NCBI GenBank assembly: GCA_007376385.1
Contig: VMGC01000005.1
Location: 64,001 to 128,000, forward strand
Direction of reading: 5' to 3'
From: Parcubacteria group bacterium Gr01-1014_8
Lineage (GTDB): Bacteria > Patescibacteriota > Minisyncoccia > Phycocordibacterales > UBA2100
Length of the DNA: 64,000 nucleotides
Shown here: positions 1,799-59,581 of the stretch, piece after piece
Layout: the number at the start of each line of letters is the position of its first letter
How positions within the stretch are numbered: position 1 is the first letter of the stretch
Made by a program: the position numbers and the translations under genes
The notes under the pieces: generated by a model
Told to the model about the DNA's origin: nothing
Databases searched by the model: none
The model's input: the letters and a program-made list of their open reading frames with translations, nothing else

Positions 1799-1819
1799 AG
1801 TATACCCCTGAGATAAATC
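1799..1819 (-). promoter_or_regulatory. Promoter-like motif TTATCTCAGGGGTATACT immediately upstream of start codon (leaderless arrangement)
   Basis: An instance of the recurrent motif TTATCTCAYGGGG plus a -10-like hexamer. The hexamer ends 6 nt before the ATG at 1792. Confidence 0.45.
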
Positions 1820-1868
1820 CTTTAGGGCGAAGCACCACCCCTTCACTGTGGAGAAGTTTTCCAGTTAG

Positions 1869-1883
1869 CCCCGTGAGATAAAG
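1869..1883 (-). promoter_or_regulatory. Second copy of the TTATCTCAYGGGG motif (reverse orientation), partner of 1952-1970
   Basis: CCCCGTGAGATAAAG is the reverse complement of the motif. It forms an inverted pair with the purB-proximal copy 77 nt away. Confidence 0.4.
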
Positions 1884-1951
1884 CGATTAAATATTGCTAG
1901 TCGTGTCGAGATTGATAATATTGTTTGGGCGATGCAAACACTCGTTTTTTG

Positions 1952-1970
1952 TTATCTCATGGGGTAAAAT
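1952..1970 (+). promoter_or_regulatory. Putative purB promoter: TTATCTCATGGGG + TAAAAT (-10-like)
   Basis: The motif is followed by TAAAAT, ~33 nt upstream of the purB ATG. Confidence 0.45.
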
Positions 1971-3887: not shown

Positions 3888-4202
3888 TCAGCGCGCTCCT
3901 CTCCCACGGGAGATAAGAGCGCCATGATGCAGGCGCGGAATAATGGTCTTGTAGCCACCTTTCCCTTTTTGAAGCCATTTTGAGACGCGGGCGATGGTGG
4001 TCGAGCTGAATCCCGTTGCTTTCTTTATATCTGAATAGGGGATATTTTCACTAAGCATTTCCGCAGTTTTGAGACGACCGGCAAATTCCTTGAGCTCGCT
4101 TTTAGTGAGAAGGTCGCGCAAAAAGCACCGTACTTCTTCAGTGGAGCGTAGCGCCAAAATGGCGGCTATCAATTGTTTACTTTCCAGGCTTTTCCAGTCC
4201 AT
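3888..4202 (-). CDS. TrpR-like DNA-binding protein, YerC/YecD family
   Basis: 104 aa with the layout of YerC-type TrpR homologues (..AILALRSTEEVRCFLRDLLT..LKEFAGRLKTAEML..; HTH IKKATGFSSTTIARVSKWL). Confidence 0.7.
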   Translation of the reverse strand: MDWKSLESKQLIAAILALRSTEEVRCFLRDLLTKSELKEFAGRLKTAEMLSENIPYSDIKKATGFSSTTIARVSKWLQKGKGGYKTIIPRLHHGALISRGRGAR

Positions 4203-6885: not shown

Positions 6886-7003
6886 GATTTATTTGCGAGC
6901 GTTGCGAGTGAAACGCAAAAGAGCACTTTTGCATTTCCGAGCCGAGGAGCAAACACAGGTTCAATACCTCGGAGCAAGCTCCGAGGAACCTTTATTGCTT
7001 AAG
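6886..7003 (+). repeat. Intergenic structured repeat, family 1, copy 1 (~115 nt; also at 35134-35254 and, diverged, 59114-59222)
   Basis: Near-identical to 35134-35254. Contains TTGCGAG-CG-TTGCGAG, a GCAAAAG/CTTTTGC hairpin, CCGAGG..CCTCGG..CCGAGG alternative pairings, and an AGG-TTCAATA-CCT hairpin resembling a tRNA T-loop. Confidence 0.6.
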
Positions 7004-13523: not shown

Positions 13524-14801
13524 TCATTCTGTTCGGAATATTCTATAAATGGCGCCAGCGCGGTCGTCGGAGACGAACATCGTGCCGCCGGGTTCGACGA
13601 GAATGTCGACGGGACGGCCTATAACCTCGCCGTCTTTCATGAAGCCGGTCATAAAATCAACCGGAGCAAGCGGATTTCCTCCGGAGTCGAAGGGAATTCG
13701 TACTATTTTGTATCCCGTCAGGACAGAGCGATTCCATGAACCGTGGTATGCGACTAAGAGATCGAACCAGTAATCCTCGGGCCATCCTTCTTCAGGAATG
13801 AACGCCAATCCTAGCGGAGCGGAATGTGCCTGTAGGTCAATGTACGACGGCGTTTCAAACGGCTCCATGCATGGATTACGTATATAGGTGTTTTTATCAA
13901 ATACGTTGTCGTGGATATTTTTTCCATAGCAGATAGGCCAGCCGTAATTTCCGCCCTCTTTGATGATGTTCACCTCGTCCGGCGGAACATCGTCGCCGAG
14001 GAGGTCGCGCCCCATGTCAGTGCCCCATAGCTCTCCGGTCACCGGGTGAATGGCCATAAAGACCGTGTTGCGGAGGCCGCGCGCGAATTCAGCCGGTTCA
14101 TCAAATGCGCTTCCTGGAAAATCGAGTGCAAGTATCTTTGCATTGCGCGCATCGGTTTCATTGCATGCATTGCATGAGGAACCAACTGCAATGAGCAAAC
14201 GTGTGCCGTCCGGGTGTGCTAAGAGAGTTCGCGTGACATGTCTTCCGCCCGTGGGAAAAGATGCAAGTGTTTTCGGCAGTGTTGCTGTAAACGTGTCGGG
14301 GTCGTAGGCGTACGATTGGAGCACATCTTCTTCCGCGACATACATTCTGCAGTCGTTTCCTGCCTGCGCCGAGGCTTCGGCAGGCAGGCCGAATTCGCCT
14401 GCCCCGTTAGAGGCCACAGGCTCTCTAATGGGGTCGCACCGGAACAAGATCCCGTGCGGAGCGTTCAAACCAGTCAGGATGTCTACGATGCGGTCGGCTT
14501 TTTTGTCGCCATCTTTGTCGGGCAGCGCCACGATGCGTCCTTCCGACATAAGAGACGCAACGAGGGTTCCTTTAACGTCGCGGGCCAAGACGCGAGCGCC
14601 GGGTGTATCGTCCGAATACACTGATACGGCAAACCCTTCGGGCACTTTGAATGGAAGTTCCCCATCATCCGCAGGAAGTGCAGGCGGAGATTTTGCGAGC
14701 GGGACTGCGCCTATCACGTTGCGGTACACATGTGGACCGAACCAAAGGAGGGCTATCGCTGCGAGCGAGAGCAACAGGATCGCAATAGTACGCGTTGGCA
14801 T
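13524..14801 (-). CDS. PQQ-dependent soluble sugar (aldose/sorbosone) dehydrogenase-like beta-propeller protein
   Basis: N-terminal TM anchor. Motifs typical of YliI/SGDH family (..HGILF.., ..GELWGTDMGRD.., GGNYGWP, GLAF..E). Confidence 0.75.
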   Translation of the reverse strand: MPTRTIAILLLSLAAIALLWFGPHVYRNVIGAVPLAKSPPALPADDGELPFKVPEGFAVSVYSDDTPGARVLARDVKGTLVASLMSEGRIVALPDKDGDKKADRIVDILTGLNAPHGILFRCDPIREPVASNGAGEFGLPAEASAQAGNDCRMYVAEEDVLQSYAYDPDTFTATLPKTLASFPTGGRHVTRTLLAHPDGTRLLIAVGSSCNACNETDARNAKILALDFPGSAFDEPAEFARGLRNTVFMAIHPVTGELWGTDMGRDLLGDDVPPDEVNIIKEGGNYGWPICYGKNIHDNVFDKNTYIRNPCMEPFETPSYIDLQAHSAPLGLAFIPEEGWPEDYWFDLLVAYHGSWNRSVLTGYKIVRIPFDSGGNPLAPVDFMTGFMKDGEVIGRPVDILVEPGGTMFVSDDRAGAIYRIFRTE

Positions 14802-17453: not shown

Positions 17454-17473
17454 AGTCTACCCCATGAGATAAG
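17454..17473 (-). promoter_or_regulatory. Putative leaderless promoter of P-type ATPase (motif + TAGACT)
   Basis: On the minus strand, TTATCTCATGGGGTAGACT lies 8 nt upstream of the ATG at 17445. Confidence 0.45.
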
Positions 17474-17539
17474 ACCAAAACCTTCCCGCCCTAATCGGTG
17501 TGAGTAAGGGAATAATTTTGTCTGAAAAGACCTATTTTC

Positions 17540-17558
17540 TTATCTCACGGGGTATAGA
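17540..17558 (+). promoter_or_regulatory. Motif copy TTATCTCACGGGGTATAGA (forward), inverted partner of 17460-17473
   Basis: Part of an inverted motif pair 87 nt apart in the divergent region between the ATPase and the LTD protein gene. Confidence 0.4.
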
Positions 17559-19471: not shown

Positions 19472-20602
19472 ATGCAAAAGAAGTTCTTAGCTGCCGGGGC
19501 TGTCGCCCTGGTGCTCATTCCGGTCGCTGTGTTTGCTGCGACGTTTAGAACAGGAGAGCAGCCCACCATCCCTTCTGGTACGACGATCAATGACGACCTG
19601 TATATTGCGGGCGGGAACGTTACGCATGCAGGCGTCGTCACAGGAGATCTTATCGCGGCTGGCGGCTCTGTTCTTGTCAGCGGAGATGTTCGAGGCGATG
19701 CGCTTGTGTCGGGAGGAAACGTAACGATACTCGGCGCAGTTTCTGACGACGTTCGAGCGGCGGGAGGCAATGTGGTCATCAATGGAGCTGTCTCGAGCGA
19801 CGTCGTTGCTGTCGGTGGGCAGCTTACTATCGCGGGTCCGGGGATTGGCGGAGATGTACTTGCCGCGGGCGGCACCGTCCGAATAGATGCGCCGGTTGTG
19901 GGCGATGTTCTCATTACAGGAGGAGACGTTTTTATCAACGCGCCGATCAAAGGAAAAGTAGACATCGAAGCCGATAAAGTCACGATTGGAAGCGCTGCGG
20001 TCATTGCGGGCGATCTAACGTACCGTGCGGGCAAGGAAGCTACAATAGAAGAAGGAGCACAGGTAAAAGGAACGACCACTCACACACTGAGGGCCGACAT
20101 AGGAAGAGCCGCTAAGAAGGGTATCGCAGCATTCGTATCGGCGTGGCTCGTCATGAAGCTTCTGATGCTTCTCGCGGGAGCATATGCGTTCTTCTATCTT
20201 TTCAAGAAGTATACGGAGACTATCGTGAGGGATTCCCTAAGCGATCCAATGTCGCAGCTCGGAAGAGGCCTTGTCTCATTCATCGTGTGGCCAGTTGCCG
20301 GCGTCATTCTGCTCGCGACTGTGGTAGGGATGCCTCTTGGCATCATGGCGCTTCTCGGGTACGGGATACTTCTGATATTTGCTCACATCATGGCGCCGAT
20401 CGCGATAGGAAGCTTGCTCTATGCGTGGGCGACAAAAAGCGCCTACCAGGTTACATGGCAGACCATACTGCTTGGAGTAGTCGCGTATTTTGTTCTCGGC
20501 TTCGTTCCAATAGTGGGTTGGATAATACGATTTGCATTCATGTTGCTGGTCTTAGGAGCGGGCCTCAGTCTCAAGTGGAATCTTGCCAAAGAGTGGAGGT
20601 AA
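19472..20602 (+). CDS. Beta-helix repeat (bactofilin-like) protein with C-terminal 4-TM membrane domain
   Basis: Signal peptide, then ~10 tandem GG.V.I.G.V..DV motifs typical of bactofilin/polymer-forming beta-helices, then four TM helices. Confidence 0.6.
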   Translation: MQKKFLAAGAVALVLIPVAVFAATFRTGEQPTIPSGTTINDDLYIAGGNVTHAGVVTGDLIAAGGSVLVSGDVRGDALVSGGNVTILGAVSDDVRAAGGNVVINGAVSSDVVAVGGQLTIAGPGIGGDVLAAGGTVRIDAPVVGDVLITGGDVFINAPIKGKVDIEADKVTIGSAAVIAGDLTYRAGKEATIEEGAQVKGTTTHTLRADIGRAAKKGIAAFVSAWLVMKLLMLLAGAYAFFYLFKKYTETIVRDSLSDPMSQLGRGLVSFIVWPVAGVILLATVVGMPLGIMALLGYGILLIFAHIMAPIAIGSLLYAWATKSAYQVTWQTILLGVVAYFVLGFVPIVGWIIRFAFMLLVLGAGLSLKWNLAKEWR

Positions 20603-22474: not shown

Positions 22475-22497
22475 AGTATACCCCGTGAGATAATAAA
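22475..22497 (-). promoter_or_regulatory. Putative promoter of dedA-like gene (TTATCTCACGGGGTATACT)
   Basis: Motif plus TATACT on the minus strand, ~20 nt upstream of the ATG at 22456. Confidence 0.4.
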
Positions 22498-22603
22498 ATC
22501 TAAGCAGCGCCGTTAGGCAAACCATAAGCGTCTCATCTTTGCGCGGAGCACTTTCCACCCTGCTCCCTTTCCTTAGGTGAAGAATTTCGAGCACGATCAA
22601 ATA

Positions 22604-22633
22604 CCTTAAGTGTGCCGACCGGCACACTTAAGG
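22604..22633. promoter_or_regulatory. 14-bp perfect palindrome CCTTAAGTGTGCCG-AC-CGGCACACTTAAGG in divergent promoter region
   Basis: A perfect inverted repeat with no flanking T-run, so not a typical terminator. It lies between the divergent dedA-like gene and the cupin PGI/sugar cluster, so it is a candidate operator. Confidence 0.4.
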
Positions 22634-22893
22634 TATTTATGTGGGTATACTCTCGGGAAAACAATCTATCTATTCTATTTTCAAGTATTGCAGTATCTTT
22701 TGAAGTTTTTCGTCTTCGATGCGGGCAAGACGCATTTGCAGCTCTTGTATTTCTTTTTTTTCTGCCAGGTTGCAGGCCTCCATTGTATAGGGGCATTATA
22801 GGCCTGTCGCTGCAAGGGGGGATAGTCACAGGGGTTCATATCCACGCGCGCATGGATTTTTTTGAAACAAAGCCAGGTATACTGGAGGATACT

Positions 22894-23489: not shown

Positions 23490-24728
23490 ATGTCTGAAAA
23501 GAAATTTCCTGAAGGATTTTTATGGGGCGCAGCGACTGCTTCGTACCAAGTTGAAGGCGGTATCGAGAATTGCGACTGGGCGAAAGCTGCTCGAGAAGGG
23601 AGGGTGCCAGAGTGCGGGCGAGCGTGCGACCACTACAATCGCTATGAAGCCGACTACGATATTGCAAAATCACTCGGGCACAACTGTCATCGGATCTCTA
23701 TCGAGTGGGCGCGTCTAGAGCCGGAGGAGGGGAAATTCGATGAGAAAGAAATTGAACACTACCTGGCTGTTCTTGCTGCACTCCGCGAGCGCCGCTTGAA
23801 GCCGTTCATCACGCTTTGGCACTTTACACTTCCGCAGTGGTTCGCCGACAAGGGCGGATTTGAACACCCTGATGCTCCGGAAATATTCGCACGGTACTGC
23901 GGATATGTCGCGCGAAAATTGGGGAATGATTGCCGTCATTTCGCGACCATCAACGAGCCCATCCCCTATGCTTCCAACGGTTGGCGGCGCGGGATATGGC
24001 TTCCATTTAAGAAGTGGCCGGGAATTGACACCATAGCGATCGCAACCTCAGGTCGCGAATTAGACCCGAGGCCAGAGACGAGCATAGCGAATATCTTCAA
24101 GTATTTTTCAGTCATAAATACGCTCATTCGCTCGCACAACGCGGCGTATGATGCGATAAAGAAATCGGCGTTCGGAGCAGAAGTGGGCATCGTACACCAA
24201 GTCCTTCTATTCCACTCGAATGGAAATCCATGGAATGTACTCCTGGCGCGCTTAATGAATTGGCACTTCACGCATTATTTTATAAAGCGTGTTTATAAAA
24301 AGTGTGACTCGATTGGCGTTAATTATTACTTGCACAAGAAATTCGGCGATACCGTCGTCTATGACAAGACGGATATGGGTTGGGACGTATATCCGGAGGG
24401 AATCCGCGAGGCGCTGCTTATGGTCAAGCGCTACGGACTGCCGCTGTGGGTCAGCGAGGCGGGTGTCGCGGACGCGAAAGACACAATTCGTGCCGAATAC
24501 ATCAAGGGGCTCGTTCGCGGCACGTATGACGCGATGCAGGAGGGCGCCGATGTGCGCGGTTTTATGTACTGGTCGCTTCTCGACAACTATGAATGGGCGT
24601 CCGGATTCGGGAAACGGTTCGGACTTGTGGAGATAGATTACGATACGCTCGAAAGGAGAGTCCGTCCGTCGGCGTACGTGTATAAACAAATCATCGAACA
24701 GAATGGCTTGGTAGACTCCGTGAGATAA
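23490..24728 (+). CDS. Glycoside hydrolase family 1 (beta-glucosidase-like)
   Basis: Classic GH1 N-terminus FPEGFLWGAATASYQVEGG, ..LWHFTLPQW.., and catalytic-region motifs (TINEP, VSEAGV). Confidence 0.85.
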   Translation: MSEKKFPEGFLWGAATASYQVEGGIENCDWAKAAREGRVPECGRACDHYNRYEADYDIAKSLGHNCHRISIEWARLEPEEGKFDEKEIEHYLAVLAALRERRLKPFITLWHFTLPQWFADKGGFEHPDAPEIFARYCGYVARKLGNDCRHFATINEPIPYASNGWRRGIWLPFKKWPGIDTIAIATSGRELDPRPETSIANIFKYFSVINTLIRSHNAAYDAIKKSAFGAEVGIVHQVLLFHSNGNPWNVLLARLMNWHFTHYFIKRVYKKCDSIGVNYYLHKKFGDTVVYDKTDMGWDVYPEGIREALLMVKRYGLPLWVSEAGVADAKDTIRAEYIKGLVRGTYDAMQEGADVRGFMYWSLLDNYEWASGFGKRFGLVEIDYDTLERRVRPSAYVYKQIIEQNGLVDSVR

Positions 24729-24798
24729 ATTCGTTGCGCTTGGCGGGGAGGCTTCTCGCATATTGCCAACATTCGACTGTGAAAAAGTCCGCGCGCAT

Positions 24799-24817
24799 TA
24801 TCTCATGGGGTAGAATA
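24799..24817 (+). promoter_or_regulatory. Putative leaderless promoter (TTATCTCATGGGGTAGAAT) of DMT-like permease
   Basis: The motif's -10-like TAGAAT ends 6 nt before the ATG at 24823. An inverted partner CTCCGTGAGATAAAT at 24716-24730 overlaps the GH1 stop codon. Confidence 0.45.
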
Positions 24818-27591: not shown

Positions 27592-27674
27592 ACCCCGTGA
27601 GATAGGACATAGTCCATCGCTCACACGACGTCGTTATGCTACCAACATTGGATGCTTAGCGGGGGTCAGATTGC

Positions 27675-27693
27675 ATATCTCATGGGGTAAACT
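27675..27693 (+). promoter_or_regulatory. Putative leaderless promoter (ATATCTCATGGGGTAAACT) of 33-aa membrane peptide
   Basis: Motif plus TAAACT, 7 nt before the ATG at 27701. An inverted partner CCCCGTGAGATAGG lies at 27594-27607. Confidence 0.4.
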
Positions 27694-28365: not shown

Positions 28366-28484
28366 CACCACACGGGTACTTCCATTTCACTAACATCGGG
28401 GTACCGATGAAGTGAAATTGGTCGCACCACACGGGTACTTCCATTTCACTAACATCGGGGTACCGATGAAGTGAAATTGGTCGC
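28366..28484 (+). repeat. Tandem direct repeat (2 x 59 nt) of a nested-hairpin element in the glnA leader
   Basis: The unit CACCACACGGGTACTTCCATTTCACTAACATCGGGGTACCGATGAAGTGAAATTGGTCG is repeated head-to-tail. Each unit folds as CATTTCACT..(CATCGG-GGTA-CCGATG)..AGTGAAAT. It lies ~95 nt upstream of glnA. Confidence 0.6.
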
Positions 28485-32368: not shown

Positions 32369-33415
32369 ATGTCGGACCACACGATGGGTGTGTACTTCCT
32401 CCTCCTTGTTCTCGCCGGGGCGCTCGTTCTTACCTTCTTTATATTCCAGCCATTCCTCGCTGCGCTCGTTCTCGCGGCGGTTTTTGCCGTTATTTTGCAG
32501 CCAGCCTATCGCCGCATCCACAGCGAGATGCCGCGTTGGCCATCTTCTGCCGCATTTCTCACCGTTCTACTCACCGTCGTGTGTATTCTCGTGCCGCTTG
32601 GATTTGTCGGGACGCAGATAGGGTATGAAGCCGCAAGTTTGTACACCTCGCTCGTCGAGGGCGATGGAAAGGCGCAAATCGCGCATTCCATCCGTGCCCT
32701 CGAAGATATTGTGGGGGTGTACATACCTGGCGCAGACGATTTTTCAGACAGGCTCTCGGAAAATATTTCATCATACGCCAAAATGGGTCTGACCTGGCTC
32801 CTTCAGCATCTAGGCTCGGCGTTCTCTGGCGTTGCGTCTATCTTTTTAAGTCTGTTCATTTTCTTCGTCACGCTCTACTATTTGCTCCGTGATGGTCTCA
32901 AGCTGAAGCAGGCGCTCATCGAATATAGTCCGCTTCGCGATTCGTACGATGAGTCGGTATTTAACAAACTAGAACTTGCAGTAAATTCCGTCATCAAAGG
33001 AAACTTGATGATTGCGCTCATTCAGGGCGTGCTCTCGGCCATCGGTTTTTCCATTTTCGGCGTACCGAATCCTGTCTTGTGGGGAACCGTGACCGCACTT
33101 GCAGCCTTGATCCCTGCAGTGGGAACCGGGCTCGTCTTTCTGCCGATAGTTTTATTTCTTTTTCTCACAGGCAATATGTTTGGTGGCATCGGACTTTCGA
33201 TCTGGGGCGCGCTTGCAGTCGGGCTCATTGATAACCTCCTCGGGCCGCGTCTCATCGGGAGCGGCATGAAGCTGCATCCGCTTCTCGTTCTCTTGTCTGT
33301 CCTCGGCGGCGTCACGTTCTTCGGTGCGCTTGGCATTTTCCTAGGACCCTTGTCGCTCAGCCTTCTTTTTGCTCTCCTTAGCATTTATCGAGATATTGCG
33401 AAGCAAGCCGTGTGA
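32369..33415 (+). CDS. AI-2E family transporter (PerM/YhhT-like, UPF0118)
   Basis: Eight TM helices with the AI-2E family topology. The first ATG sits 6 nt behind TTATACT, a leaderless arrangement. The annotated ORF begins at a TTG at 32348. Confidence 0.75.
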   Translation: MSDHTMGVYFLLLVLAGALVLTFFIFQPFLAALVLAAVFAVILQPAYRRIHSEMPRWPSSAAFLTVLLTVVCILVPLGFVGTQIGYEAASLYTSLVEGDGKAQIAHSIRALEDIVGVYIPGADDFSDRLSENISSYAKMGLTWLLQHLGSAFSGVASIFLSLFIFFVTLYYLLRDGLKLKQALIEYSPLRDSYDESVFNKLELAVNSVIKGNLMIALIQGVLSAIGFSIFGVPNPVLWGTVTALAALIPAVGTGLVFLPIVLFLFLTGNMFGGIGLSIWGALAVGLIDNLLGPRLIGSGMKLHPLLVLLSVLGGVTFFGALGIFLGPLSLSLLFALLSIYRDIAKQAV

Positions 33416-33427
33416 TAGGCTGACACA

Positions 33428-34471
33428 ATGCTTGTTGATGATGTCACCATAAAACTCTCTGGGGGCAACGGCGGTCCGGGCATCGTCGGCTTCAATCGCA
33501 CTAAAGGAAACACGGGTCCGACAGGCGGTAACGGGGGCCCTGGCGGCGATGTCATTCTTGAAGGCATTTCGGATATCAGCGCGCTTCTTCAATTCAGATT
33601 TAACAAAGATTTCAAAGGCGAAGATGGCAAGCAAGGCACAACGCGTCTGCGCGACGGCACGCGCGGTGAGGATTTGATATTGAAAATTCCGACGGGAACG
33701 GTCATCACGAATCTCGACACAGGCTGGACGCATGAACTGACGAAGGAGGGCGAGCACGTTATGGTCGCAAAAGGCGGCTATCGCGGCCGTGGAAATTTCC
33801 ACTTCCGCGCATCGACGAATACGACGCCGATGGAAGCCGAGACGGGCGAACTCGGAGAGAGTTTTACATTCCGCCTTGAACTCAAGATGATCGCCGACGT
33901 GGGTCTTATCGGTATTCCGAACGCAGGCAAATCGTCGCTTCTCAACGAACTGACCGGCGCGCACTCGAAGATAGGGAATTACGCGTTCACGACACTCGAG
34001 CCGCACCTCGGCGCATACTACGGGCTCATTCTTGCAGACGTGCCGGGTCTTATCGAAGGTTCGTCGGAAGGCAGGGGCTTGGGAGACAGATTCTTGCGCC
34101 ACATCGAACGCACGCGCGTCCTCTTTCATTTAGTGTCTGCGGAATCAGACGATGTCGTACGCGATTACAAAATAGTGCGGCAGGAATTGCAGGCCTATAA
34201 TCCTGCGCTCACAAAAAAAGAGGAGTATGTGTTTTTGACGAAGGTTGACCTCGTGGATGGTAAGGACGCGGAAGCAAAATTGAGGTTATTGAAGAAGATG
34301 AACAAGAATGCGCTCGCGCTCTCGGTCATCGAAGATAAGCGGATGAGGGCGGTGAAAGACATTCTCAACACGTTCCTAAAAGAAAAGAAGGTGGCTCCCC
34401 CTGGGACCACACTTGGATTTTCTGAAGCGGGAGTACCCGCTAAGAAAATCTCGGCGGTCGATGACAAATGA
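33428..34471 (+). CDS. obg: GTPase Obg/CgtA
   Basis: Gly-rich Obg fold (GGNGGPG..) followed by a G-domain (GIPNAGKSSLLN, DVPGLIEG). The last ~18 codons are supplied by a copy of repeat family 2. Confidence 0.9.
   Translation: MLVDDVTIKLSGGNGGPGIVGFNRTKGNTGPTGGNGGPGGDVILEGISDISALLQFRFNKDFKGEDGKQGTTRLRDGTRGEDLILKIPTGTVITNLDTGWTHELTKEGEHVMVAKGGYRGRGNFHFRASTNTTPMEAETGELGESFTFRLELKMIADVGLIGIPNAGKSSLLNELTGAHSKIGNYAFTTLEPHLGAYYGLILADVPGLIEGSSEGRGLGDRFLRHIERTRVLFHLVSAESDDVVRDYKIVRQELQAYNPALTKKEEYVFLTKVDLVDGKDAEAKLRLLKKMNKNALALSVIEDKRMRAVKDILNTFLKEKKVAPPGTTLGFSEAGVPAKKISAVDDK
34405..34460 (+). repeat. Hairpin repeat family 2, copy 1 (inside obg 3' end)
   Basis: GACCACACTTGGATTTTCTGAAGCGGGAGTACCCGCTAAGAAAATCTCGGCG. 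Homologous to 52449-52517 (same orientation) and 52936-52999 (inverse). Confidence 0.6.
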
Positions 34472-35159
34472 ACCGACAGTGATTTTTGAGAACGACGATT
34501 TTCTCGTCATCAATAAACCGGCCGGGCTCATCGTGCACTCGGACGGAAGGACGATAGAGCCGTCGCTCGCCGACTGGCTCATCGCGCGCTCCCCCGCGCT
34601 ACAAGAGGTCGGCGAGCCATGGGTGTCGCCGCAAGGAGAAAAAATTGCGTGCCCTGGTCTTGTGCATCGTTTGGATAGAACAACATCGGGTGTGATGGTT
34701 GTGGCGAAAACACAGGCGATGTGGAAATACCTGCGCGCAGAATTTAAAGAGCGGCGTGTCGAAAAGAAATATCACGCATTTGTCTACAGTCATGTGGAGG
34801 GGAGTTCTGGTCGGATTGTTTCTGAAATCATGAGGTCGTCTACGCCTCCTAAAAAATGGTATGCACGGCCATGCGACGAAAGCCACAAGCGAGCAGCCAT
34901 AACGGATTGGACGCTTTTGAAAAAGCTCGAAGATAACGGCGAGCTCATTTCGTATCTCGAAGTTCAGCCTCGTACCGGCCGCACGCATCAGATACGCGTG
35001 CATCTTGCATCTATCGGGTATCCTATAGTCGCGGACCATCTGTACTCCGACAAGAAGCCACTTTTAGGATTCACGCGCCCGGCGCTTCATGCACACAGTA
35101 TTTCATTCATGCTGCCGTCAGTAGAAAACCGGGAATTTATTTGCGAGCGTTGCGAGTGA
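34461..35159 (+). CDS. RluA-family pseudouridine synthase
   Basis: Catalytic motif HRLDRTTSGVMVVAK and ..FLVINKPAGL... Overlaps the obg stop by 11 nt. Confidence 0.85.
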   Translation: MTNEPTVIFENDDFLVINKPAGLIVHSDGRTIEPSLADWLIARSPALQEVGEPWVSPQGEKIACPGLVHRLDRTTSGVMVVAKTQAMWKYLRAEFKERRVEKKYHAFVYSHVEGSSGRIVSEIMRSSTPPKKWYARPCDESHKRAAITDWTLLKKLEDNGELISYLEVQPRTGRTHQIRVHLASIGYPIVADHLYSDKKPLLGFTRPALHAHSISFMLPSVENREFICERCE

Positions 35160-35254
35160 AATGCAAAAGAGCACTTTTGTATTTCCGAGTCGAGGAGCAA
35201 ACACAGGTTCAATACCTCGGAGCTTGCTCCGAAGAACCTTTATAGCGCCACCAC
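35134..35254 (+). repeat. Intergenic structured repeat, family 1, copy 2
   Basis: ~95% identical to 6886-7003. It supplies the last codons (FICERCE*) of the RluA-like gene. The substitutions relative to copy 1 keep the GCAAAAG hairpin intact via a G-U wobble. Confidence 0.6.
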
Positions 35255-51026: not shown

Positions 51027-51554
51027 ATGGAATACACCATCAAGCGTTCGCGGCGCGCAAAGTATATGCGCCTTCGCGTGCATCCCGGCGGCGTTGTGAT
51101 CTTGACGGTGCCATACGCGAGCGAGGCAACTGCAATTCAGCAATTTGTATCGAGGCAGGCCGAGTGGCTGAAGTGGGCCGTGCGCAAAATGATGCAGTAT
51201 AAGGCCTTGCCGGTCTCCGGGAGGAGGGATTATTTGAAATTCAAGGAAGATGCGAGGAGTTTTCTGCACGAGCGCGTTGCGTATTGGAATGCACACTACA
51301 ACTTTTCATTCCGGCGCATCGCAATAAAGAATACTAGCCGCACATGGGGAAGTTGTTCGAAGAAGGGGAATTTGAACTTCTCTTTTTCACTTCTTTTTCT
51401 TCCGAAAGAACTTGCCGACTACGTTGTTGTGCATGAACTCAGTCACTTGGCGCATCCGAACCATTCCCGCTCGTTTTGGGCGGAGATAGCAAAGACCATC
51501 CCAGATTTTCAGGCGCGCCGACAAGAATTGAAGCGGTACATGCCGCGCAGTTAG
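51027..51554 (+). CDS. DUF45/YgjP-like zinc metallohydrolase
   Basis: HExxH (VVHELSHLAHPNHS) in a ~175-aa YgjP-type protein. Confidence 0.7.
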   Translation: MEYTIKRSRRAKYMRLRVHPGGVVILTVPYASEATAIQQFVSRQAEWLKWAVRKMMQYKALPVSGRRDYLKFKEDARSFLHERVAYWNAHYNFSFRRIAIKNTSRTWGSCSKKGNLNFSFSLLFLPKELADYVVVHELSHLAHPNHSRSFWAEIAKTIPDFQARRQELKRYMPRS

Positions 51555-52448: not shown

Positions 52449-52517
52449 TGGCTCGCTTACGCGGCCACACTTGGATTTTCTAAAGCCGGCATACGCCCGC
52501 TTTAGAAGATCTCGGCG
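52449..52517 (+). repeat. Hairpin repeat family 2, copy 2 (immediately 3' of csp)
   Basis: GGCTCGCTTACGCGGCCACACTTGGATTTTCTAAAGCCGGCATACGCCCGCTTTAGAAGATCTCGGCG. It forms an inverted pair with 52936-52999. Confidence 0.6.
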
Positions 52518-52935: not shown

Positions 52936-52999
52936 CGCCGAGATTTTCTTAGCGGGTACGCCCGCTTTAGAAAATCCAAGTGTGGTCGCGAAGCGAGCC
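52936..52999 (-). repeat. Hairpin repeat family 2, copy 3 (inverted; upstream of csp)
   Basis: Reverse complement of the 52449-52517 / 34405-34460 element. The spurious ORFs 52826..53014 and 34195..34467 share the peptide AEIFLAGTPA(L/S)ENPSVV because of it. Confidence 0.6.
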
Positions 53000-53010
53000 A
53001 CCGCCCTGTT

Positions 53011-54450: not shown

Positions 54451-54696
54451 AGAGGTGTTTGCTCGGCATGTGTTTGCAGCCGCTGGTGTCCGGCGCTGCA
54501 CATTCGGTCTGTTGCTCTTAGTACTTCCTACATTCAGCCTACTGGCTTCAGTATTTCCTCGTTCTTCACTTGGTCATCGCTCTGCGCTCGGCAGGCTGCA
54601 TACCTTAGTGGTGCCGACCGGCACCACTAAGGTATGCGTTCTTTGCGGGGATATCTTTCTTGTTTGGGGCATCGTACGCCTGCTACTGTTACTGGG

Positions 54697-55677: not shown

Positions 55678-55901
55678 GCACAAGAACCTGATATCGACCG
55701 GATATGGTGCCGTAGACCCCCGAACTCGCGCGGCGATAGCGGCTGTGTGCAGCTTTTGAATAGAATGTTAGTCAGCAGAATTGCCGAAGCTGTAGATACG
55801 TGAGCTAATATTTTGGGGTCAGTTTTCCACTGGCACATTGCCGGACGGCCTGCTATTCTGCAGCCAATGACTCACCCCGGAACGGCCGTCATGATGTGTA
55901 T

Positions 55902-58421
55902 ATGAAAAAACACATCCGACCGAGCGGCGTGCGACAACCGAGTGGCGAACGAGGACGTGGTGAGGACAGCAGTCCGAATCCAGGAAGTGCTGAGGCCAGC
56001 AGAGCGAACGTGGTCTGGATGGAGGAGGTCGGGATGAACGATGTCGCGAGCGTGGGGGGAAAGAACGCCTCGCTGGGCGAGCTTCTCGGTTCTGTCGGAA
56101 AAAAAGGAGTTCGAGTGCCGAGCGGTTTCATCGTCACTGCAGCAGCGTACGAGTACATATTGAAGAAAAATAATCTGAATGCATTTATTAAAGAGACTCT
56201 TAGTGGCATCCAGGTCCGCAACATCAAGGAACTTGCACGCCGCGCAAAGAAGATACGCGACAAGATAATCGCCTCAAAACTCCCGCCAGACCTGGCGGGA
56301 GAAATCGTTAAAGGGTATCGGGAGATGGAAAGGCAATACGGTAAAAATGTGGATGTTGCGGTCCGCTCCAGCGCGACTGCAGAAGACTTGCCGGATGCGA
56401 GTTTTGCAGGGCAACAGGAGACATACCTCGGCATCCGCGGAGAAGCAGCAGTCCTGAAAGCGGTGATGTGGACCATAGCGTCGCTCTTCAACGATAGAGC
56501 AATCGTATATCGCGCCGAAAAAGGATATTCCCATACACACATCGCACTTTCCGTCGGTGTTCAGAAAATGGTGCGGGCAGGGGAGGGCTCATCGGGCGTC
56601 ATGTTTACGCTCGACACCGAATCCGGATTCAAAGATGTGGTGCTGATCACCGCCTCGCTGGGGCTAGGCGAGCTTATCGTCCAAGGCCGCGTTTCTCCCG
56701 ATGAGTACATCGTATTCAAGCCGACGCTCGGCAAGTTTCCGAAACCAATCATCTCAAAGGCAATGGGCCAGAAGGAAGGCAAGATGGTGTACTCCAAGCA
56801 AAACGAATCAGTGGATATTTCGCGCGTAAAAGAAATTAAGACAAGTGAAAAAGAACGAAGCACGTTCTGTCTCTCGGACAAAGATATTCTTACGCTCGCA
56901 AAATGGGCGACGATGATAGAGGACCACTATACGAGGCGCCGCGGTTCATGGTCGCCGATGGACATCGAGTGGGCGAAAGATGGCGACGGGAAACTGTATA
57001 TCTTGCAGGCGCGGCCGGAGACCGTGCAAGTGAAGCGTGACGTCACGGTCTTTCGAGAATATTTGCTTCGCGGCAAACCGCGCAAACTTCTTGCGAAGGG
57101 TATATCAGTGGGGCACAGCATCGTCTCTGGACGTGCACGCGTTATCCATCACCCCAAGGAAGCAGAACAATTCAAGAAAGGCGAAATTCTCATCACGAAA
57201 ATGACAGACCCTGACTGGGGCCCGATCATGAAAATGGCAACCGCCATCGTAACGGATAGTGGCGGCAGGACCTCGCACGCGGCAATCGTCTCTCGCGAAC
57301 TTGGCATTCCGGCCATCGTCGGCGCTCATGACGCGACAAAAAAGATAAGGACGGGAGACATCATCACCATAGATGTCGCAGGCTCGGAAGGCAGGATTTA
57401 TCCGGGCAAGGTCTCCTTCACGATGACCGAACAGAACATCAAGGCGCTCCCGAAAACAAAAACGAAGCTCATGCTGAACCTCGCGTCGCCCGACATGGCA
57501 TTCGGCTATTCGCACTTGCCGGTGCAGGGCGTGGGCCTCGCGCGCGAAGAATTCATCATCGCGTCCTACATCGGCATCCATCCATCGGCGGTTCTCAATT
57601 TCAAAACGTTGCCCCCGGACATAAAGAAAAAAGTCGCGAACCGTACGCGCGGTTGGAGCGACCCGAGACAATTCTACATAGACAAGCTTGCCTTCGGTAT
57701 CGCCAAGATCGCGGCCGCATTCTATCCGAAGCAGGTCATCGTCCGTTTTTCTGATTTCAAGTCGAACGAGTATGCAGGCCTCATAGGCGGTGACTTGTAC
57801 GAGCCTAAAGAAGAAAACCCGATGATAGGGTGGCGTGGTGCGTCCCGCTACTACGCGCCGGCATTCCGCAAAGCGTTCGAGCTGGAAATAAAGGCGTTCT
57901 TGAAAGTGCGCAACGATATGGGGCTTAAGAACGTGATACCCATGGTGCCGTTCTGCCGCACTATTGAAGAGGCGAAAAAGGTTCTTGCGTTGATGGCGGA
58001 GGACGGACTTGTCCCGCGCTCGCTCGCGAAGAAGAAGAGCGAAGGAGTCGAAACCATCATGATGTGCGAGATACCGTCAAACGTCGTCCTTGCTGATGAA
58101 TTTCTCAACTACTTCGACGGTTTTTCCATCGGCTCGAACGACTTAACCCAGCTTGCGCTCGGACTCGACAGAGATTCTGGCACTATCGCCAAGGTGGGCA
58201 ACGAGAACGACCCGGCTATCCGAAAACTCATCAGTGGCGCAATAGATGCCTGCAAGAGGCGAAAGAAATATTCAGGCATCTGCGGCCAGGGTCCGTCGGA
58301 TCTTCCTGATTTTGGCGACTTTCTGGTGCGGAAGGGAATTGGGAGCATGTCGCTGAACCCCGACACGGTCGTCAAAACGCTGGTGCGGATCGCGAAGCTG
58401 GAGAAAAAGTTGAAGTTCTAA
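55902..58421 (+). CDS. ppsA: Phosphoenolpyruvate synthase (pyruvate, water dikinase)
   Basis: N-terminal ..VVWMEEVGMNDVASVGGKNASLGEL.., phospho-His domain GGRTSHAAIVSRELGIPAIVG, and a C-terminal PEP-utilising TIM-barrel. Start codon uncertain (GTG 55896 / ATG 55902). Confidence 0.9.
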   Translation: MKKHIRPSGVRQPSGERGRGEDSSPNPGSAEASRANVVWMEEVGMNDVASVGGKNASLGELLGSVGKKGVRVPSGFIVTAAAYEYILKKNNLNAFIKETLSGIQVRNIKELARRAKKIRDKIIASKLPPDLAGEIVKGYREMERQYGKNVDVAVRSSATAEDLPDASFAGQQETYLGIRGEAAVLKAVMWTIASLFNDRAIVYRAEKGYSHTHIALSVGVQKMVRAGEGSSGVMFTLDTESGFKDVVLITASLGLGELIVQGRVSPDEYIVFKPTLGKFPKPIISKAMGQKEGKMVYSKQNESVDISRVKEIKTSEKERSTFCLSDKDILTLAKWATMIEDHYTRRRGSWSPMDIEWAKDGDGKLYILQARPETVQVKRDVTVFREYLLRGKPRKLLAKGISVGHSIVSGRARVIHHPKEAEQFKKGEILITKMTDPDWGPIMKMATAIVTDSGGRTSHAAIVSRELGIPAIVGAHDATKKIRTGDIITIDVAGSEGRIYPGKVSFTMTEQNIKALPKTKTKLMLNLASPDMAFGYSHLPVQGVGLAREEFIIASYIGIHPSAVLNFKTLPPDIKKKVANRTRGWSDPRQFYIDKLAFGIAKIAAAFYPKQVIVRFSDFKSNEYAGLIGGDLYEPKEENPMIGWRGASRYYAPAFRKAFELEIKAFLKVRNDMGLKNVIPMVPFCRTIEEAKKVLALMAEDGLVPRSLAKKKSEGVETIMMCEIPSNVVLADEFLNYFDGFSIGSNDLTQLALGLDRDSGTIAKVGNENDPAIRKLISGAIDACKRRKKYSGICGQGPSDLPDFGDFLVRKGIGSMSLNPDTVVKTLVRIAKLEKKLKF

Positions 58422-58512
58422 TCAAGAGTCTCTGCATAGAGCTCAAATCCAAAATACCATAATGGTGCCGGTCGGCACCATTATGGTATTTCGTTTTTCA
58501 TGGTGAGAAGCG

Positions 58513-59070
58513 TCAACCTGCGCTCTCTCGCTCGATAACGTCCTGTATCTCGCGAATATCTTTTACGTTCTCCATCCATCTGAGTTCTCTGTCTGTTTTC
58601 GAAATACCGAGGTGATGGTGCAAGGCATCATGCATACGCAATATTTTCGTTATTTCTGCTTCCGCACGCACGTCTATTTCGAAATCCATCTGTTGGCGTA
58701 GGTCCGCAATTTTGCTCTGTCTGTTCTGGCTGATGAGGACGACGATGGCGAGACCGATTGCTTCAAGCGAGACTACCATCGTAAGGAGCCCGAATGGGAA
58801 CGGGTCAAATATAGGGAGTCCTAGCCATCCCAGATTCCACTCTATCCAGCCGATGAAGAACCCCGCATGCCAGATCAGGAACCAGACAGTGCCGAACTGT
58901 ACGGTCATGAAATCGGCGACTTTATCGGTCCAGTGCCGCTCAAACTTGAGCTGGGACTTGAACATTTCAGCCTTATGCTTCGCCTTCTTTTTGTGCTCCT
59001 CTTTTACTTCAAGGGTATGTTTTATTGGCTCCATCTCCGGCATCCTACCCCCGGCTCGACTTCTCCTCAA
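58513..59070 (-). CDS. DUF1003 family membrane protein
   Basis: Two TM helices followed by a charged helical C-terminal region typical of DUF1003. Confidence 0.65.
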   Translation of the reverse strand: MRRSRAGGRMPEMEPIKHTLEVKEEHKKKAKHKAEMFKSQLKFERHWTDKVADFMTVQFGTVWFLIWHAGFFIGWIEWNLGWLGLPIFDPFPFGLLTMVVSLEAIGLAIVVLISQNRQSKIADLRQQMDFEIDVRAEAEITKILRMHDALHHHLGISKTDRELRWMENVKDIREIQDVIERESAG

Positions 59071-59113: not shown

Positions 59114-59222
59114 CCTTTATTGGCGAGCGTTGCGAGCGAAGCGAAAATGTATTCATTTTCATTTTCGAGCCGAGGAGCCAACATAGGGTCGAATACCCCG
59201 CGGTATGAATACCCTTTATTTT
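59114..59222 (+). repeat. Intergenic structured repeat, family 1, diverged copy 3
   Basis: TTTATTGGCGAGCGTTGCGAGCGAAGCGAAAATG-TATT-CATTTTC..GAGCCGAGGAGCCAACATAGGG-TCGAATA-CCC. It keeps the direct repeat and both hairpins with different stem sequences, i.e. compensatory changes. Confidence 0.5.
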
Positions 59223-59581
59223 AAGAGCCTGTCGATAGCATCAATGATGCCTTGTGCTGATTCATCTGATTTCACTACGTAGCCGCGGATACCGAGCGCC
59301 ATTCCTTCCGCGATGTTATCCATTGAAGACACGTTGGAGGTAATGAGTACAGGCGTTTTACCCTCGCCGTATTTTTTGTTCAGTTCCTTCAGGAATTGGA
59401 GGCCGTCCATTCCAGGCATCTTGATATCAAGAAGGATGCCGTCGGGCTGTGATTCGCTCATTTTTTGCAGCCCCTCGCTTCCGTCACTCGCACATACCAC
59501 TTCGTACTCTGCGCTGTCCAGCTCTCCTTTCATGAGACTCTTGAAAGTCTCGTCATCATCGATAATAAGTATTTTCTTCAT
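59216..59581 (-). CDS. Orphan single-domain response regulator (CheY-like)
   Basis: ILIIDDDE..D..LLDIKMPGMDG..K.. Confidence 0.85.
   Translation of the reverse strand: MKKILIIDDDETFKSLMKGELDSAEYEVVCASDGSEGLQKMSESQPDGILLDIKMPGMDGLQFLKELNKKYGEGKTPVLITSNVSSMDNIAEGMALGIRGYVVKSDESAQGIIDAIDRLLK

Follow-up and report, generated by a model that had tools for sequence, protein, structure and literature searches.

The 64,000-nt stretch considered here (positions 64,001 to 128,000 of contig VMGC01000005.1 from Parcubacteria group bacterium Gr01-1014_8; the window in what follows) carries repeated copies of a 13-nt motif, TTATCTCAYGGGG, many of which are directly followed by a hexamer resembling a -10 promoter box. 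In the initial annotation the motif was regarded either as part of an extended -10 promoter or as the half-site of a global regulator. Our comparisons point to a different origin. The 13-mer is probably not a promoter signal but the end of an insertion element of about 100 bases that resides in -10 boxes and is kin to a nuclease-bearing element. At the level of sequence comparison, the units bounded by the 13-mers are established as lineage-specific insertions, the hexamers as ancestral, the 13-mers (termed arms below) as tied to a gene for a GIY-YIG nuclease, and the gene-plus-arms unit as discrete.

Arm pairs and probable -10 boxes in the window

When the window (G+C content 51%) was scanned for TTATCTCAYGGGG with up to two mismatches, 11 matches were obtained against an expectation of 1.85 +/- 1.49, and none of 100 shuffled sequences reached 11. 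Ten of the 11 are good copies, in agreement with the ten or more instances recorded initially, while the match at 3904-3916 (two mismatches) is probably due to chance. The good copies lie at 1805-1816 (with a 1-nt deletion), 1869-1881, 17460-17472, 22481-22493, 24716-24728 and 27593-27605 on the minus strand and at 1952-1964, 17540-17552, 24798-24810 and 27675-27687 on the plus strand; the coordinates put forward earlier were right in general and needed no correction apart from shifts of 1-3 nt in places. All copies fall between 1.8 and 27.7 kb, and a relaxed scan brought up no further ones, none at all being found between 28 and 64 kb. The four inverted pairs described before were recovered with start-to-start spacings of 83, 80, 82 and 82 nt, and 7 kb leftward of the window the contig carries a fifth pair (L001, 959/1041). 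The copies at 1805 and 22481 are solitary, no partner arm turning up even when five mismatches were allowed. A further candidate, CCCCGTTAGAGG-8 nt-TCTCTAATGGGG at 14402-14433, resembles a degenerate arm pair with a small gap (look-alike at 14422) and was rejected: it lies within an open reading frame (ORF) and, with its TCTCTAAYGGGG kept in the relatives' orthologues, is probably no more than part of a coding sequence.

Directly behind seven of the ten arms stands a hexamer scored as TAnnnT (TATACT, TAAAAT, TAGACT, TATAGA, TATACT, TAGAAT and TAAACT), so that the reported succession of motif and -10-like hexamer is true for these seven; the remaining three arms are followed by CTAACT, TCTACC and TTTACC. 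A start codon 6-8 nt after the hexamer, also reported before, is seen at 1792, 17445, 24823 and 27701, and the start of the AI-2E gene at 32369 indeed exhibits the pattern ascribed to it, GGTTATACTGCTGCC-ATG.

The closest relatives of the purB and ATPase genes of the window are annotated as Candidatus Kaiserbacteria. Relatives of the ATPase gene were found at loci L268, L270 and L272 (72-79% identity) and relatives of purB at L273 and L274 (76-78%), with the same gene order as in the window. No arms were detected in about 36 kb plus about 29 kb sampled from two assemblies of these relatives, nor in a 7.8-kb contig. Neither are there arms at their orthologous promoters of the ATPase, permease, VTT/DedA, secreted-protein, purB and Vut_1 genes, where the hexamer-to-ATG geometry is kept. 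The absence of the 13-mer from these six promoters, with the hexamer geometry retained, speaks against its earlier interpretation as the upstream element of an extended -10 promoter. Four of the comparisons are as follows.

VTT/DedA gene: TATACT-8-ATG, armless, in relatives; arm plus TATACT, 18 nt to the ATG, in the window
Secreted-protein gene: TATACT-6/7-ATG, armless, in relatives; arm plus TATACT-6-ATG in the window
Vut_1 gene: TATACT-6-ATG, armless, in relatives; arm plus TATACT-7-ATG in L001
purB: TATAGT or TATAAT plus conserved GCTAYA, armless, in relatives; arm plus TAAAAT plus GCTACA in the window

At the permease gene the DNA upstream is coding, and the junction of unit 3 can therefore be placed exactly. 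In L268 this junction reads ...GGGCTGGTAGAATAGTTGGA-ATG. In the window the corresponding sequence begins with ...GGCTTGGTAGA, continues with the unit CTCCGTGAGATAA-69 nt-TTATCTCATGGGG-TAGA and ends with ATAGGTCA-ATG. Removal of positions 24716-24814 (99 nt) yields a continuous alignment with L268 (GGTAGAATAG...ATG) across GGTAGA/ATAG, the slash marking the join, and TAGA is the duplicated sequence. Judged from this alignment, unit 3 has demonstrably been inserted inside an ancestral TAGAAT box, which was rebuilt downstream of it. The GH1 protein encoded upstream ends in LVE-stop in L268 and in LVDSVR-stop in the window, its stop codon falling inside arm 24716-24728; because the arms hold TGA or TAG in some frames, the location of the left arm on this stop codon follows from the insertion. 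At unit 4, a single nucleotide separates the end of the ROK gene from arm 27593. The earlier observation that left copies occur at gene 3' ends, one of them on the GH1 stop codon, is thus accurate. The units, the solitary arms and the adjoining hexamers are listed below.

1799..1804, minus strand: -10 hexamer TATACT, with 6 nt to the secreted-protein ATG (1792); the orthologues in L273 and L274 have TATACT 6-7 nt before ATG
1805..1816, minus strand: solitary degenerate arm TTATCTCA-GGGG (1-nt deletion), no partner
1869..1968, plus strand: unit 1, consisting of arm 1869-1881, an unrelated 70-nt spacer, arm 1952-1964 and TAAA; the purB relatives L273 and L274 are armless
1965..1970, plus strand: -10 hexamer TAAAAT of purB with a 33-nt leader; aligns with TATAGT (L273) and TATAAT (L274), conserved GCTAYA next
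17454..17459, minus strand: -10 hexamer TAGACT, with 8 nt to the ATPase ATG (17445); in the armless orthologues TATACT-7-ATG, TATAAT-7-ATG and TATACT-8-ATG
17456..17552, minus strand: unit 2, consisting of arm 17540-17552, a 67-nt spacer, arm 17460-17472 and TAGA, facing the ATPase gene; absent in L268, L270 and L272
22481..22493, minus strand: solitary arm TTATCTCACGGGG, adjoining TATACT (22475-22480) and the VTT/DedA gene; L268 and L270 have TATACT-8-ATG, armless
24716..24814, plus strand: unit 3, a 99-nt insertion comprising two arms (24716-24728 and 24798-24810), the 69-nt spacer between them and a final TAGA
24811..24816, plus strand: rebuilt -10 hexamer TAGAAT, with 6 nt to the permease ATG (24823); L268 has one TAGAAT, 7 nt before ATG
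27593..27691, plus strand: unit 4, consisting of arm 27593-27605, a 69-nt spacer, arm 27675-27687 and TAAA, with TAAA on either side
27688..27693, plus strand: -10-like hexamer TAAACT, with 7 nt to the ATG (27701) that opens a 33-codon ORF

Identical 4-mers flank three of the five units of this genome, namely unit 3 (TAGA/TAGA), unit 4 (TAAA/TAAA) and unit 5 (TATA/TATA). The solitary arm at 1805..1816 is probably an old relic; L274 possesses a 10/12 look-alike at the orthologous place and L273 does not. A variant pair, CCCCGTTAGATA-69 nt-TATCTAACGGGG, is also present in the syntenic relative L003 (64% purB identity), where it separates the 3' end of purB from that of an ABC-transporter gene in convergent orientation and neither arm adjoins a -10 sequence.

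The hexamers themselves are plausibly -10 boxes of leaderless mRNAs, as suggested by a count over 62 genes with crudely assigned ORF starts. A TAnnnT sequence precedes the first start codon by exactly 6 nt in nine of them (0.6 expected, p ~1e-8) and by 6-9 nt in 16 (2.4 expected, p ~1e-9). Shine-Dalgarno-like tetramers (GGAG, GAGG or AGGA at -4 to -17) are found at background level, in 6 of the 62 genes compared with 4 of 62 for a control region. Most genes with a start-proximal TAnnnT carry no 13-mer, examples being TATACT-6-ATG at 19472, 21749 (minus strand) and 32369 and TAGAAT-6-ATG at 51027. The leaderless transcripts that had been deduced from the motif are hence supported, while their connection to the motif is not: by these counts the leaderless reading holds genome-wide and independently of it. 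A literature search on promoters and leaderless transcripts in the candidate phyla radiation (CPR) returned nothing specific.

The element family and its nuclease gene

Arm pairs of the same kind are widespread in metagenomes. With the pattern CCCCRTKAGATA-N{55,85}-TATCTMAYGGGG they were found on at least 120 contigs with G+C contents of 31-65%. The matches listed comprise 127 pairs, and among them the spacer length peaks at 71-72 nt and mostly amounts to 67-78 nt, although 55-85 nt were allowed; the intergenic context is tandem in 49 cases, divergent in 14 and convergent in 11, and two of the 127 spacers are tRNAs. With so few tRNAs, and with folding hardly above that of shuffled sequence (mean z -0.4 to -0.5, median -0.2), the idea that the spacer is a tRNA or small RNA was abandoned; an E-value-based Rfam scan of eight related loci yielded nothing but tRNAs and an L10 leader. 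Outside the arms, the adjoining 4 nt are conserved (TTYA left, TRAA right) without covariation, and a stem extending outwards was likewise rejected. Among the A-type units, 10 of 74 are bounded by identical 4-nt direct repeats where 1.1 were expected; for the C-type units the figures are 14 of 46 and 4.1. Pairs combining an A-variant and a C-variant arm exist, and in the C-variant pairs T occupies the variable position of exactly one arm in 28 of 52 cases and of both arms in none of the 52. Flanks that had not been selected by the scan contain additional arrangements: 13 tight palindromes (arm-4 nt-arm), divergent arm pairs 5-7 nt apart, and five divergent pairs whose arms are 254-274 nt apart.

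Filled and empty copies are represented by a host sequence that holds the unit in L093 and L201 and lacks it in L195 and L086. This host sequence, ...GTAAAAAGTCCATCTGCGGCGTTGCGC...TCGTTGCGGCGCACC... (L093 1850-2050, L201, L195 around 4040, L086 around 2590), is itself conserved and multi-copy and occurs with or without a 95-nt unit; three copies are present in 13 kb of L093, and no Rfam match was obtained at E <= 1.

The arms enclosing 254-274 nt lead to the presumed enzyme. In four of the five cases they bracket a gene for an 87-92-aa GIY-YIG protein (Pfam PF01541, E = 3e-14 to 2e-16), and three of the four have a right arm, TAT CTC ACG GGG followed by TAA or TGA, that encodes the C-terminus Y-L-T-G-stop of the nuclease. 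The family comprises 967 clusters at E <= 1e-5, of which the best 120 are 77-99% identical to the query. YLTG is present in all 14 of these whose sequences were fetched and C-terminal in 12; most reside on short contigs, as expected for repeats. At the five loci that were approached from the protein (L263-L267) arms were found on both sides in every case, some with 1-3 mismatches, and no other arms occur within 10 kb. Since L265-L267 constitute one conserved locus, about three independent loci are represented. On these three Verrucomicrobia-type contigs the arm-flanked nuclease gene occupies a conserved place, its TAA stop codon directly abutting the ATG of an MTHFR gene.

At L264, removal of a 285-nt unit restores the sequence ...ELLGHS/DVSTTMIYTHVLN... 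of an integron-type integrase, so that gene plus arms form a discrete insertion. The interrupted integrase gene (L264 9139-10400) also has one internal stop codon and may be a pseudogene. A link to the shorter units is provided by L101, in which a 76-nt spacer encodes the last 29 residues of the nuclease with 76% identity; to judge from this remnant, L101 shows one route from the gene-bearing to the gene-less form.

For the nuclease, Pfam gives GIY-YIG only, a comparison with NCBIfam returned nothing above the cut-offs, and the nearest solved structures in the PDB are UPF0213 proteins (E = 3e-4). A tblastn search with the nuclease against plasmid and phage collections produced no match at E = 1e-5. 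An origin from phages or plasmids was also rejected on the basis of the arms, a 15-mer giving 60 single matches in IMG/VR, which by a rough estimate does not exceed chance. Small divergent arm pairs with a total length of 38 nt (14-nt gap) were observed on the IMG/VR contigs L211, L217, L220, L246 and L247, and UViG_3300044799_000709 carries several 38-nt arm pairs. A full-text literature search for the 12-mers retrieved only unrelated papers with apparently incidental strings such as primers.

From these data the following course of events is likely. The element consists of two inverted arms of 12-13 nt (CCCCRTGAGATAA ... TTATCTCAYGGGG) around a spacer of about 70 nt, with a 4-nt sequence TAnA or TRAA after the right arm; in the gene-bearing form of about 285 nt a single-domain GIY-YIG nuclease of 87 aa is encoded between the arms. 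By analogy with the Ssn nucleases and their NTS repeats (described below) we infer that the enzyme recognizes the arm duplex in single-stranded DNA, nicks alongside it and mobilizes gene-less units in trans, TAnA being the preferred target. The host is a Kaiserbacteria-like member of the Parcubacteria with almost no Shine-Dalgarno sites and with plausible -10-only promoters 6-8 nt before the start codons. Gene-less units would have entered the TAnA half of existing -10 hexamers or the DNA directly beside such boxes, and the downstream TAnA of the unit together with two leftover host bases would again make up a TAnnnT box. With the box rebuilt, the gene would keep its leaderless promoter and the 13-mer would appear fused to a -10 sequence.

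Several observations weigh against this proposal. The GIY-YIG gene was found neither in the 72 kb read of the source contig nor in L003; the units present here may be relics or may have been mobilized from elsewhere in the genome. When spacers were considered as decayed nuclease genes, L101 alone scored. A base-exact empty site is available for unit 3 alone, and units 1 (TTAG/TAAA) and 2 (TATA/TAGA) lack identical flanking 4-mers. The spacers of the five units of this genome are mutually unrelated, no conserved interior as known from MITEs (miniature inverted-repeat transposable elements) being found among them, so that they need not stem from a single gene-less founder. The spacer length is narrow (67-78 nt) in spite of the unrelated sequences, and the extra 4-5 nt at L264 (TAAAG) and L093 (TGAA) do not duplicate the target. 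Finally, TAnnnT follows 14 of 33 arms with T at the variable position compared with 14 of 100 arms with C (p = 0.001), a bias that could reflect some promoter-related role of the arm after insertion.

Alternative explanations and known systems

It is unlikely that the 13-mer is a working upstream promoter element, that is a lineage-typical contact site for a sigma factor or activator, with the pairs representing back-to-back divergent promoters. The succession of arm, hexamer and, in four cases, a start codon at 6-8 nt would suit such an element, as would the enrichment of TAnnnT behind T-arms and the recurrence of arm, TATACT, 6-7 nt and start codon at prfB-, rpmF- and adk-like genes of C-variant contigs. 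However, the orthologous promoters of the closest relatives share the position of the hexamer and are armless, most leaderless-type promoters in the window lack an arm, and no copies occur between 28 and 64 kb. Moreover, three arms have no usable hexamer, two of them pointing into the 3' end of the upstream gene, and pairs elsewhere are located between convergent genes (11 cases), by gene 3' ends, in a tRNA gene and around the nuclease gene. A residual role of the arm in modulating a promoter after insertion is possible.

Quite improbable is an action of the pair in RNA, where a stem of 12-13 bp with a loop of about 70 nt would serve as a processing, insulating or terminating hairpin or delimit an excised intervening sequence. 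Whole units do fold well on the strand directed towards the downstream gene (z -3.9 to -5.3), on which all arm mismatches in the four window pairs are G.U wobbles, and the arm-bounded block at L121 splits the anticodon loop of a tRNA(CAU) whose halves still make a near-perfect cloverleaf. The folding signal is, however, the inverted repeat itself, given the near-random z scores of the spacers, and there is no covariation in the 4 nt outside the arms. Mixed A/C pairs exist, perfectly pairing T/T arms are absent (0 of 52), and if transcription starts after the hexamer the hairpin lies outside the downstream mRNA. No Rfam match supports such a structure, a scan of the window at gathering thresholds being negative as well.

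The view that the arms are half-sites of a global regulator, the other possibility raised in the initial annotation, or of a nucleoid protein, which would bridge sites about 80 bp apart, accords with inverted arms, narrow spacers of 67-78 nt and the 13 tight palindromes, but is highly improbable because copies are missing from the syntenic relatives and positions differ between relatives, because the unit at 24716-24814 is a proven insertion, because arms occur in varied gene contexts, bracket cargo of three sizes (5-7, about 72 and about 260 nt) and form a single set around the nuclease gene on Verrucomicrobia-type contigs with no others within 10 kb, and because the neighbouring genes are functionally unrelated.

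Two metagenomic loci combine arms with tRNA genes. At L121 (419-600, reverse) the tRNA(CAU) gene is split in the anticodon loop by a 164-nt block composed of an arm, a complete tRNA-Val, an arm, a second tRNA 3' half and an arm; the near-perfect cloverleaf, as found by ARAGORN, is formed by the 5' half and the distal 3' half. At L155 (2067-2245) a complete tRNA-Thr(UGU) lies exactly between two arms, and on either side of this arrangement are parts of a different tRNA-Thr-like gene that could not be put back together. Units also reside within long YD/RHS-repeat-like ORFs without introducing a stop codon, their arms being read as HPVRY...LSHGV (L152 764-861, L189 131-225 and 634-731). These may be in-frame insertions like the Rickettsia palindromic elements.

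For the insertion element proposed here the closest known system is Ssn/NTS, followed by REP/RAYT. Ssn proteins are single-domain GIY-YIG nucleases which cleave single-stranded DNA site-specifically next to NTS/SRM hairpin repeats (Chenal et al. 2025, PMC11893778). These repeats flank the ssn gene and are present in hundreds of genomic copies, and the authors liken the system to REP/RAYT (PMC11893778). In the same way, a gene for a single-domain GIY-YIG protein of about 90 aa with an inverted-repeat motif on both sides is found at about three independent loci of other genomes. In both systems the motif is, in addition, scattered over the genome, for the most part between genes and with clusters around some of them. 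There are differences as well. The arms fail the SRM pattern HGTCWY..YYVSBRH..WNVSBRG..RNCYNB, neither palindrome variant conforming to it, whereas an NTS control fits and two unrelated matches occur in the window. Our units mostly form a split stem that encloses about 72 nt or the gene, while the NTS is a self-contained hairpin with a 4-nt loop, for which insertion into -10 boxes is not described. Ssn proteins are assigned to the CDD family cd10448, of which the present nuclease, recognized by its GIY-YIG domain and with UPF0213 proteins as nearest structures, may or may not be a member. The host belongs to the CPR, a group absent from PMC11893778.

REP sequences, their doublets (REPINs) and the associated RAYT enzymes (the subject of PMC3116915 and PMC3337134) resemble the units in that inverted doublets with a spacer, about 100 nt long, lie dispersed between genes and the enzyme gene is flanked by the repeat. 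The RAYT enzyme is an HUH Y1 transposase and not a GIY-YIG nuclease, the single arms of our units are, unlike REP sequences, not palindromic, the spacers within one genome are unrelated, and the arms keep their sequence on contigs ranging from 31 to 65% G+C instead of being species-specific.

Integron attC sites were rejected as a match: the order of RYYYAAC...GTTRRRY is reversed in the arms, which read GTTAGAT ... ATCTAAC in the A variant and GTGAGAT in the C variant. Correia elements of Neisseria are promoter-bearing MITEs of about 100-150 bp with inverted repeats. On insertion a short target containing TA is duplicated, and the element ends can supply neighbouring genes with -10 or -35 boxes. 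The Correia elements have conserved interiors and terminal repeats of 25-26 nt. To our knowledge they have no dedicated nuclease. Our units differ from them in that conservation is confined to 12-13 nt plus 4 nt and that the -10 sequence is rebuilt from the ancestral box, not newly created. A classical MITE was rejected as well, as the inverted repeats are clear but the spacers within one genome are unrelated; a target duplication of the MITE type is seen in one case with an empty site (unit 3), and many units are without direct repeats.

Two further comparisons concern parts of the picture. In rRNA genes of CPR bacteria, insertions that are neither group I nor group II introns encode GIY-YIG proteins, and many short insertions below 200 bp and without an ORF are reported besides (PMC11270868); that paper mentions neither inverted repeats nor palindromes. 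The -10-only leaderless promoters described for Actinobacteria and Deinococcus (PMC4633059), with TAnnnT 6-8 nt upstream of the start codon and neither Shine-Dalgarno sequence nor -35 box, resemble the window hexamers alone; the 13-mer does not belong to promoters of this kind.

Other repeats and implications

The window contains further repeats. A perfect 36-bp palindrome (ATACCTTAAGTGTGCCGACCGGCACACTTAAGGTAT and variants) is present in three copies. Two of them, 22601-22636 and 54600-54635, lie at gene 5' ends, the latter ending in the ATG of the gene at 54634, and the third, 58454-58489, is located between the ends of the genes 55896-58421 and 58513-59070; the palindromes may be operators or hairpins. 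A 112-nt repeat occurs three times after gene 3' ends (6887-6998, 35135-35246 and 59115-59226, the second and third with 94% and 63% identity to the first); it folds into two to three hairpins, has no match in Rfam and is a candidate for a family of small RNAs or terminators. In the long stretch preceding the glutamine synthetase gene, a 59-nt unit is duplicated exactly and in tandem (28366-28483). Finally, a 67-nt inverted repeat (34390-34456 and 52936-53002) is 90% complementary over a distance of 18 kb, with a third, partial copy at 52460-52494.

It is possible, yet on balance doubtful, that the arm-bounded units represent a hitherto undescribed family of mobile elements, whose autonomous form of about 285 nt would be among the smallest known, whose gene-less forms of about 100 nt would be spread through the CPR, and which would combine targeting and rebuilding of -10 boxes with possible removal at the RNA level in tRNA and rRNA genes (as at the split tRNA(CAU) gene of L121). 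In this view the rebuilt box would make an insertion nearly neutral for leaderless genes, and a preference for -10 boxes might be due to an action of the nuclease on single strands of DNA, these boxes being melted in open promoter complexes. For motif searches in general, the case is a warning: what looks like a strikingly conserved "promoter motif" fused to -10 boxes may be a scar left behind by a mobile element with these boxes as its target. It also brings into view a very small GIY-YIG-associated element family in the CPR and other uncultured bacteria, which clean filled and empty sites make testable. In addition, the window offers sequence-level evidence for a Kaiserbacteria-like genome that is essentially free of Shine-Dalgarno sites and leaderless in its gene expression. 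If the nuclease is indeed an Ssn-like site-specific DNase for single strands, it would add a new recognition sequence to the toolbox.

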